From a virus (Duplodnaviria > Heunggongvirae > Uroviricota > Caudoviricetes): a stretch of 64,000 nt of DNA. This document shows positions 4,703 through 4,787 of the stretch, in pieces (the stretch's first letter is position 1; each line of letters opens with the position of its first letter). The translations under genes were made by a program, and so were the position numbers. Below the pieces are notes generated by a model. That model had not been told where the DNA came from. It saw only the letters and a program-made list of their open reading frames with translations, and made no database searches. The stretch is taken from IMG/VR virus record IMGVR_UViG_3300036715_001196, positions 1-64,000 of that record; one strand, written 5' to 3'.

Positions 4703-4727
4703 CAAATGATTCCAGCTATCATATTAT
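4699..4727 (+). promoter_or_regulatory. sigma70-type promoter of the family-A cassette (TTGACA-N17-TATTAT), followed by an (ATA)n microsatellite
   Basis: TTGACAAATGATTCCAGCTATCATATTAT. The -35 overlaps the stop of the upstream family-A gene. The -10 is followed by about 19 ATA/TAA repeats before the conserved UTR and RBS. Confidence 0.6.
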
Positions 4728-4787
4728 TATAATAATAATAATAATAATAATAATAATAATAATAATAATAATAATTACCACACATTA
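4725..4787. repeat. (ATA/TAA)n trinucleotide microsatellite, about 19-20 units, between the promoter -10 and the RBS
   Basis: Perfect ATAATAATA... tract. The same position in other cassettes reads ATAATTACTACACATTAAACAAACAGGAG. Confidence 0.9.

Follow-up and report, generated by a model that had tools for sequence, protein, structure and literature searches.

A trinucleotide repeat in front of one member of a multi-copy phage gene family raises the question of whether it regulates that gene or has simply been tolerated there. The original prediction was that it could act as a length-variable, contingency-like switch that tunes expression of this one paralog. The analysis described here finds no support for such a switch. 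We favour, with reasonable though far from complete confidence, the reading that the tract is a tolerated slippage expansion, born from the -10 box of a promoter in a redundant paralog family, and not a dedicated switch.

The DNA analysed (hereafter the window, 64,000 nt in full) derives from a 77.7-kb JGI metagenome contig. It carries phage-like genes for a NinI-like phosphatase, HNH and homing endonucleases, a MoxR-type ATPase with a VWA/metallopeptidase partner, an SPFH protein, and tRNAs. Among the tRNAs, tRNA-Arg(TCT) at 35028-35102 was confirmed, and tRNA-Met (CAT) at 35947-36034 (88 nt) is an ARAGORN call that stays below the Rfam tRNA gathering score. Two large genes are DUF7487-type homing-endonuclease-like (15677-17227 on the minus strand and 22377-23864 on the plus strand); the second is 44% and 40% identical, respectively, to annotated homing endonucleases of the PA5oct-like jumbo phages of Pseudomonas and of the RaK2-like jumbo phages of Klebsiella. 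The plus strand has 37 near-consensus sigma70 promoters (11/12 or better), 17 of them exact TTGACA-N16/17-TATAAT, and the minus strand has 1. Most of these promoters lie 20-35 nt before a start codon; examples are found at 9974, 13341, 20660, 33645, 35556, 40028, 41544, 43484, 44010, 44461, 50584, 53254 and 61421-63649. Judged from the sequence, this promoter layout is the early-region architecture of a large virulent phage. Megablast of 3500-6500 against the INPHARED phages gave no match; no close relative is present among these deposited phages.

The genes on both sides of the repeat belong to family A, a protein family that lacks a Pfam domain and has 1,352 homologs in metagenomes. The window encodes at least 12 complete copies, including a tandem array of four at 43.0-45.0 kb. 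Their N- and C-terminal parts are conserved, and the central part consists of four-residue repeats, AA[WRY][DY], which are encoded by tandem 12-nt units and vary in number by paralog. Blocks of these 12-nt repeats lie at 4365-4539, 4892-5043, 21073-21273, 21590-21766, 38309-38531, 43126-43324, 43629-43847, 44155-44301, 44607-44842, 47725-47888, 48626-48770, 52997-53108 and 63790-63945. Functional variation would more plausibly come from these in-frame coding repeats than from the (AAT)n tract. The 129-aa paralog downstream of the tract is intact and keeps all family-invariant residues; tblastn of this gene against phages gave no match, probably through low-complexity masking.

The repeat and its place in the promoter

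Tandem Repeats Finder delimits a perfect period-3 run of 47 nt at 4729-4775 (15.7 units, 100% matches). In its compound form the tract measures 54 nt or 18 units, (TAT)3 at 4722-4730 joined to (AAT)15 at 4731-4775, with TAC coming next (Table 1). The perfect trinucleotide tract predicted at this locus is thus real, but the extent first given to it, about 19 units and some 60 nt at 4725-4787, was too large and overran its true 3′ end by about 12 nt. The tract includes a displaced TATAAT (4728-4733) and 14 overlapping AATAAT hexamers. The runner-up among perfect microsatellites of periods 1 to 6 in the window has 16 nt, and the longest period-3 run in 200 third-order Markov simulations of the window had a mean of 12 nt and a maximum of 17 nt. 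Therefore, the tract is far beyond chance, despite the AT-richness of the window (36.4% GC), and its 47-nt run is a long, pure simple-sequence repeat able to undergo slipped-strand mispairing. It was also expected to be rare in phage genomes. Such tracts are indeed rare among the 2.9 million IMG/VR contigs that were scanned, but this one is not unique: (ATA) tracts of at least 15 units occur at no fewer than 120 other loci, a figure that is a floor, and span 45 to 296 nt among the matches listed, many of which are giant-virus MAGs. The promoter pattern TTGAC[AT]-N15-19-TAnnnT abuts the tract in none of these listed loci (120 checked).

Table 1. Coordinates of the tract, its promoter and the neighbouring features in the window.
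Feature	Position	Strand	Evidence
Upstream family-A paralog, 139 aa	4283..4702	+	ORF list, JGI gene call, family alignment
Shadow ORF, 95 aa, TTG start, Tyr15 run	4522..4809	-	ORF list
-35 hexamer TTGACA	4699..4704	+	Cassette search, promoter scan, alignment
17-nt spacer AATGATTCCAGCTATCA, kept across nine cassettes	4705..4721	+	Cassette search, alignment
Working -10 TATTAT, 5/6 match, canonical 17-nt spacing	4722..4727	+	11/12 overall, nine-cassette alignment
Compound microsatellite (TAT)3(AAT)15	4722..4775	+	Sequence, TRF, assemblies, simulations
Predicted transcription start (A), 7 nt after -10, within the tract	4734	+	Inferred from -10 position and standard sigma70 geometry
Leader remainder	4776..4810	+	Sequence, alignment
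Downstream family-A paralog, 129 aa, served by the tract promoter	4811..5200	+	ORF list, JGI gene call, family alignment
Sister cassette with small expansion at the same site	44461..44495	+	Alignment; identical in independent contig L167

The position of the tract relative to the promoter was determined by aligning the nine cassettes of the window that share this promoter. Where their consensus reads TCA-TATAAT-TAC, the tract-bearing copy reads TCA-TAT-TAT-TAT-(AAT)15-TAC. The -10 now consists of the compound repeat's first two TAT units, and the original TATAAT has been pushed 6 nt downstream. The tract thus starts inside the -10 hexamer and is not inserted between this element and the RBS as had been supposed, while the accompanying change of the -10 to TATTAT is borne out by the correctly spaced hexamer. 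The lengthening of the leader is likewise evident, with 83 nt from the -10 to the ATG versus 29-36 nt in the other eight cassettes. The repeat begins at the -10 and stops 35 nt short of the ATG, lying between promoter and start codon. Behind it, a conserved leader part ACACATTAAACAAAC occupies 4780-4794, and five extra nucleotides, ACCGT (4795-4799), precede the Shine-Dalgarno sequence AGGAG (4800-4804), which stands 6 nt ahead of the ATG (4811).

This placement bears on what changes in repeat number could do. Classical promoter contingency loci, as described for nadA, change the -35/-10 spacing or the phasing of distal operators (PMC2791445). Unlike these loci, the tract has its 17-nt spacer upstream of the variable part and is non-coding on the plus strand. 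Since it lies downstream of an intact -35/17-nt/-10 arrangement and outside any ORF, gain or loss of units cannot alter promoter spacing or reading frame; spacing, operator phasing and frame are all left out of its reach.

Several other roles were considered and rejected. A promoter using the displaced TATAAT would have a spacer of 23 nt to TTGACA, and the hexamer lying 17 nt upstream of it (AATGAT) has a 0/6 match to TTGACA. A role as an origin or DNA-unwinding element is contradicted by the lack of flanking iterons, and the complex repeats of the window are located at 59.1-60.6 kb. There, 59118-60579 is densely packed with direct repeats (periods 31, 42, 63, 74, 137 and 210 nt), includes a perfect duplication of 48 nt, overlaps no plus-strand ORF of at least 100 aa, and by its sequence resembles an origin, iteron or packaging region. 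The poly-Tyr ORF on the opposite strand of the tract (95 aa with Y15) was correctly regarded as spurious, as judged from its position antisense to the conserved 3′ end of the upstream paralog, its TTG start and, by reading of the sequence, its lack of a Shine-Dalgarno sequence.

Sister cassettes and the origin of the expansion

The cassette, TTGACAAATGATTCC-N5-TCATATAAT, has nine plus-strand copies in the window, where none is expected by chance; they start at 4699, 21451, 43484, 44010, 44461, 61421, 61969, 62775 and 63649. Their alignment gives a perfect sigma70 consensus, TTGACA-N17-TATAAT, followed by TACTAC, an A/C-rich leader, AGGAG, 5-7 nt and the ATG. Five cassettes come after a family-A gene whose TGA stop is within the -35 hexamer, and the TGA of the paralog upstream of the tract (4700-4702) falls inside this hexamer. 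The fixed leader that had been attributed to the other cassettes, ATAATTACTACACATTAAACAAACAGGAG, was recovered in five of them with at most one mismatch.

One sister cassette carries a small expansion at the very same site. The cassette at 44461 reads TCA-TATAAT-AAT-AAT-TAC: its TATAAT (44484-44489) merges into (AAT)3 (44487-44495), so that two units are added and the -10 remains intact. The identical expansion is present in the independent contig L167 (99.2% identical overall). By its sequence, this cassette seems to have been caught early in the same process of slippage; it supplies an intermediate and points to a tendency to slip at this particular site. One site of the cassette family thus shows AAT unit counts of 1, 3 and 15, from which we infer a signature of replication slippage seeded by TATAAT. 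In the proposed course of events, the TAT and AAT triplets of this -10 hexamer would have seeded the slippage, and the expansion would have been hosted by one copy of a dispersed early-promoter cassette in a large, AT-rich (36% GC) phage genome.

The leader behind the tract was compared with those of the other cassettes as well. Its ACCGT resembles ACCGC in the leader of cassette 44010 (44030-44040), whose gene (44069-44464) is the closest paralog of the gene downstream of the tract (84% identity in blastn, the match beginning 22 nt before the ATG). Given this likeness together with the paralogy, the leader looks like a mosaic of two cassette subtypes and not like a de novo insertion.

Related phages were then compared at the same site. 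From them 36 related loci were retrieved, which contain 28 distinct homologous cassettes (TTGACAAA..CTTCCATTGCTGTATAAT) with short, A/C-rich leaders. None of the 36 loci has a microsatellite of four or more units, and the tract is found in 0/28 of the relatives' cassettes. The distance from the -10 to the ATG is 22-35 nt in 26 of the 27 homologous cassettes measured, and 22-36 nt in 34/36 when cassettes of the window and of the relatives are taken together, which leaves the tract-bearing copy as an outlier. The cassette, including its 17-nt spacer and A/C-rich leader, is kept in related phages from different samples (loci L015-L044), and the family-A proteins of these phages are only 37-59% identical. 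Such conservation of the spacer, beyond what sigma70 needs, suggests by sequence either a binding site for a regulator or a PeSL-like cassette that is mobile and recombinogenic (see below).

In Mycoplasma gallisepticum a promoter repeat recurs throughout a gene family. The vlhA genes of this bacterium carry a (GAA)n repeat about 40 nt upstream of the transcription start at every member, which varies among strains and permits expression only at 12 units (PMC6258824). The phage tract is similar in being a trinucleotide repeat at the promoter of a gene from a large family of paralogs. It differs in lying downstream of the -10, in being long in one copy only, and in being invariant in the available assemblies. 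A long tract is present in just one of the nine window cassettes, with a three-unit tract in one more, and in none of the 28 cassettes of relatives. This distribution speaks against a contingency switch.

Tract length across assemblies

Independent assemblies of the locus were found in other samples of the same project by exact-protein look-ups of the flanking genes. Three assemblies agree in the length of the tract without a single gap: the 77.7-kb source contig, Ga0373631_0007596 from sample 3300035180 (6,390 nt aligned, 9 mismatches, no gap) and Ga0373632_0039411 from sample 3300035181 (3,899 nt aligned, 3 mismatches, no gap), the last two with an identical tract. The possibility that the repeat is an assembly or sequencing artefact, which the proneness of low-complexity sequence to mis-assembly and the ends of some contigs nearby would bring to mind, is effectively refuted by the recovery of one gapless sequence from three separately assembled samples and by the uniqueness of both flanks. 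Typical short sequencing reads are longer than the 47-nt tract.

The equal length has to be read with care. All mismatches among the assemblies are at 5978 or beyond, and more than 1 kb around the tract is identical. The assemblies therefore share a very recent haplotype and are not evolutionarily independent, so that their agreement in length is weak evidence for stability, and they are consensus assemblies, which hide minority or sub-population lengths. The equal length in three assemblies offers no support for a length-variable switch. It can be held against the slippage-product reading that a pure tract of 15 units is of the kind that slips often, so that heterogeneity in the population is plausible, and that the equal length could reflect selection on length or recent shared ancestry. 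The tract is probably intrinsically unstable in length.

Contig ends around the tract might be taken as a further sign of variation. In sample 3300035661 the locus is split between one contig that ends at 4693 (L012) and a short one that starts at 4796 (L005); another short contig, from sample 3300037010, starts at 4795 (L004). Both of these starts fall no more than 20 nt or so from the tract. These breaks could stem from local heterogeneity, which would again count against a mere slippage product. However, the break points coincide with the borders of the dispersed cassette repeat. This accounts for them just as well, and they are thus no specific sign of heterogeneity in the tract.

A contig from sample 3300035182 (Ga0373636_0019155, L002/L013) is without 4283-4810 and so has neither the upstream paralog nor the promoter nor the tract. 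In it, the 129-aa gene comes straight after a 62-aa upstream ORF, ATG to ATG, with 3 nt shared at the junction. Either a genuine indel polymorphism or a join made during assembly could account for this. The T that follows the junction ATG matches the downstream copy and speaks against a simple k-mer chimera. If the variant is real, paralog, promoter and tract can all be dispensed with. Exact-pattern scans for further copies of the locus used both flanks and the consensus leader in IMG/VR, the left flank in the JGI metagenome collection and the right flank in GTDB genomes, and none was found. The exact-protein look-ups of the flanking genes returned only the same handful of contigs, and Logan contigs, among them ones from runs SRR11723145 and SRR11727740 that are identical to the flanks, end before the tract. 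The sample and run identifiers gave no hits in the literature.

This plasticity recalls the PeSL elements of T4-type phages, in which an early-promoter cassette is joined to a stem-loop or terminator (PMC2839356, PMC4122927). As in that system, a conserved early-promoter cassette is repeated between small accessory genes in a plastic region, and genes are gained or lost between close strains, here in the form of the presence/absence variant of 4283-4810. Unlike in PeSL regions, the end points of this deletion run from ATG to ATG and not from cassette to cassette. The likeness pertains to the cassette and not to the microsatellite.

Expected effect on expression and comparison with known repeats

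The tract-bearing copy has an intact -35, 17-nt spacer, 5/6 -10, Shine-Dalgarno sequence and ATG. Transcription would therefore be expected still to start at about A4734, within the tract, and to produce a 5′ UTR of about 77 nt of AU-rich RNA in place of about 24 nt, both values depending on the predicted start. AATAAT is a 5/6 match to the -10 consensus that keeps A2 and T6. It occupies 4734-4739, or +1 to +6 from the predicted start, and 13 more copies follow in 3-nt steps, so that -10-like hexamers are placed close to +1 in what would be the initially transcribed region. In initially transcribed regions, -10-like elements cause sigma70-dependent promoter-proximal pausing, and at lambda PR′ and lac one such element shortly after the start gives a pause at +16/17 (PMC7876045). 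By analogy, the AATAAT hexamers from +1 on would be expected to provoke sigma70-dependent pausing near the promoter. The likeness to the lambda PR′ and lacUV5 pause elements is one of sequence match only. Unlike the single, precisely placed element of lambda, the hexamers of the tract are by-products of the repeat, and neither a Q-type antiterminator nor its binding element has been identified.

Through a weaker -10, pausing and a long AU-rich leader, the effect on output would be quantitative, probably a modest reduction. No terminator-like site was found by a plus-strand scan anywhere in 3500-6500. Without a terminator after the upstream paralog, the downstream gene can, and probably does, receive read-through transcription, which would buffer the reduced output of the promoter. 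Tolerance of the expansion would be explained by the redundancy of the gene, which has its place among at least 12 paralogs in the window, and by its being readable from upstream. A role of the tract in RNA structure was rejected: it is wholly unpaired in the predicted minimum-free-energy fold, and the same weak hairpin of -6.5 kcal/mol forms around the RBS with the tract present or removed (z-scores 0.39-0.62, not significant).

The tract might instead be a leader element selected at a fixed length. It could serve as an AU-rich platform for ribosomal protein S1 or for translation enhancement, as an entry site for RNase E, as a sigma70 pause platform serving a phage regulator, or as a site for an AT-hook or H-NS-like protein. 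The equal length in three assemblies would fit such an element, as would the predicted lack of structure directly upstream of the RBS and the predicted +1 to +6 position of AATAAT, in view of the analogous pauses at +16/17 of lambda PR′ and lac (PMC7876045). However, recent common descent, apparent from more than 1 kb of identity on each side, explains the equal length. Moreover, the eight sister cassettes and the 28 cassettes of relatives have no equivalent, their leaders being uniformly short, no Rfam match exists in the region, and selected binding sites are not usually perfect repeats. We consider a selected fixed-length element quite improbable.

The tract might also be a graded contingency locus, or rheostat: the number of AAT units would set leader length and the number of pause hexamers, and by these means the dose of one paralog. 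The nearest functional analogue of the tract is, by this comparison, the 7-bp repeat of hmw1A/hmw2A in non-typeable Haemophilus influenzae, which numbers from 9 to 28 units between isolates, more repeats correlating with less hmwA mRNA (PMC2424069). In both cases a simple repeat is situated in the promoter/leader ahead of the start codon, and a graded effect, not an on/off effect, would be expected. The phage tract differs in its 3-nt unit, its derivation from a -10 hexamer, and its equal length in three assemblies. Besides this precedent, a rheostat would suit the length and purity of the tract, its position between promoter and start codon, and the membership of the gene in a diversifying multi-copy family, and contingency loci have recently been reported in phages (bioRxiv 10.1101/2025.10.21.683753). 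Those loci, in T2/T4, are homopolymers of at least 6 bp, mostly within ORFs, and cause reversible frameshifts. The tract resembles them as a slippage-prone simple repeat in the genome of a virulent-type phage but, as a non-coding trinucleotide, is unable to frameshift anything. Against a rheostat stand the constant length in the assemblies, the restriction of a long tract to one cassette, where vlhA-type repeats occur at every member, the absence of the whole module from the co-occurring variant contig, and probable read-through transcription, which would blunt tuning at the promoter. The rheostat is accordingly an unlikely explanation. The fuller proposal, that a virulent-type phage possesses a heritable, reversible rheostat in which a non-coding repeat sets sigma70 pausing and leader length and thereby the dose of an early gene, appears highly improbable.

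If the rheostat were nevertheless true, it would be a phage contingency locus that acts at the promoter, unlike the homopolymer loci described to date, which are of the frameshift type. Should repeat number prove variable and affect output, phage contingency loci would extend from coding homopolymers to promoter/leader repeats, and the variants would provide a natural series for studies of sigma70-dependent pausing. The locus also counsels caution, in that long AT-rich repeats adjacent to promoters need population data before they are labelled as switches. If the tract is only a product of slippage, the reading favoured here, it would represent a clean natural case of the birth of a microsatellite from a consensus -10 hexamer, with an early stage of 3 units and a late stage of 15 units preserved in sister cassettes of one genome.
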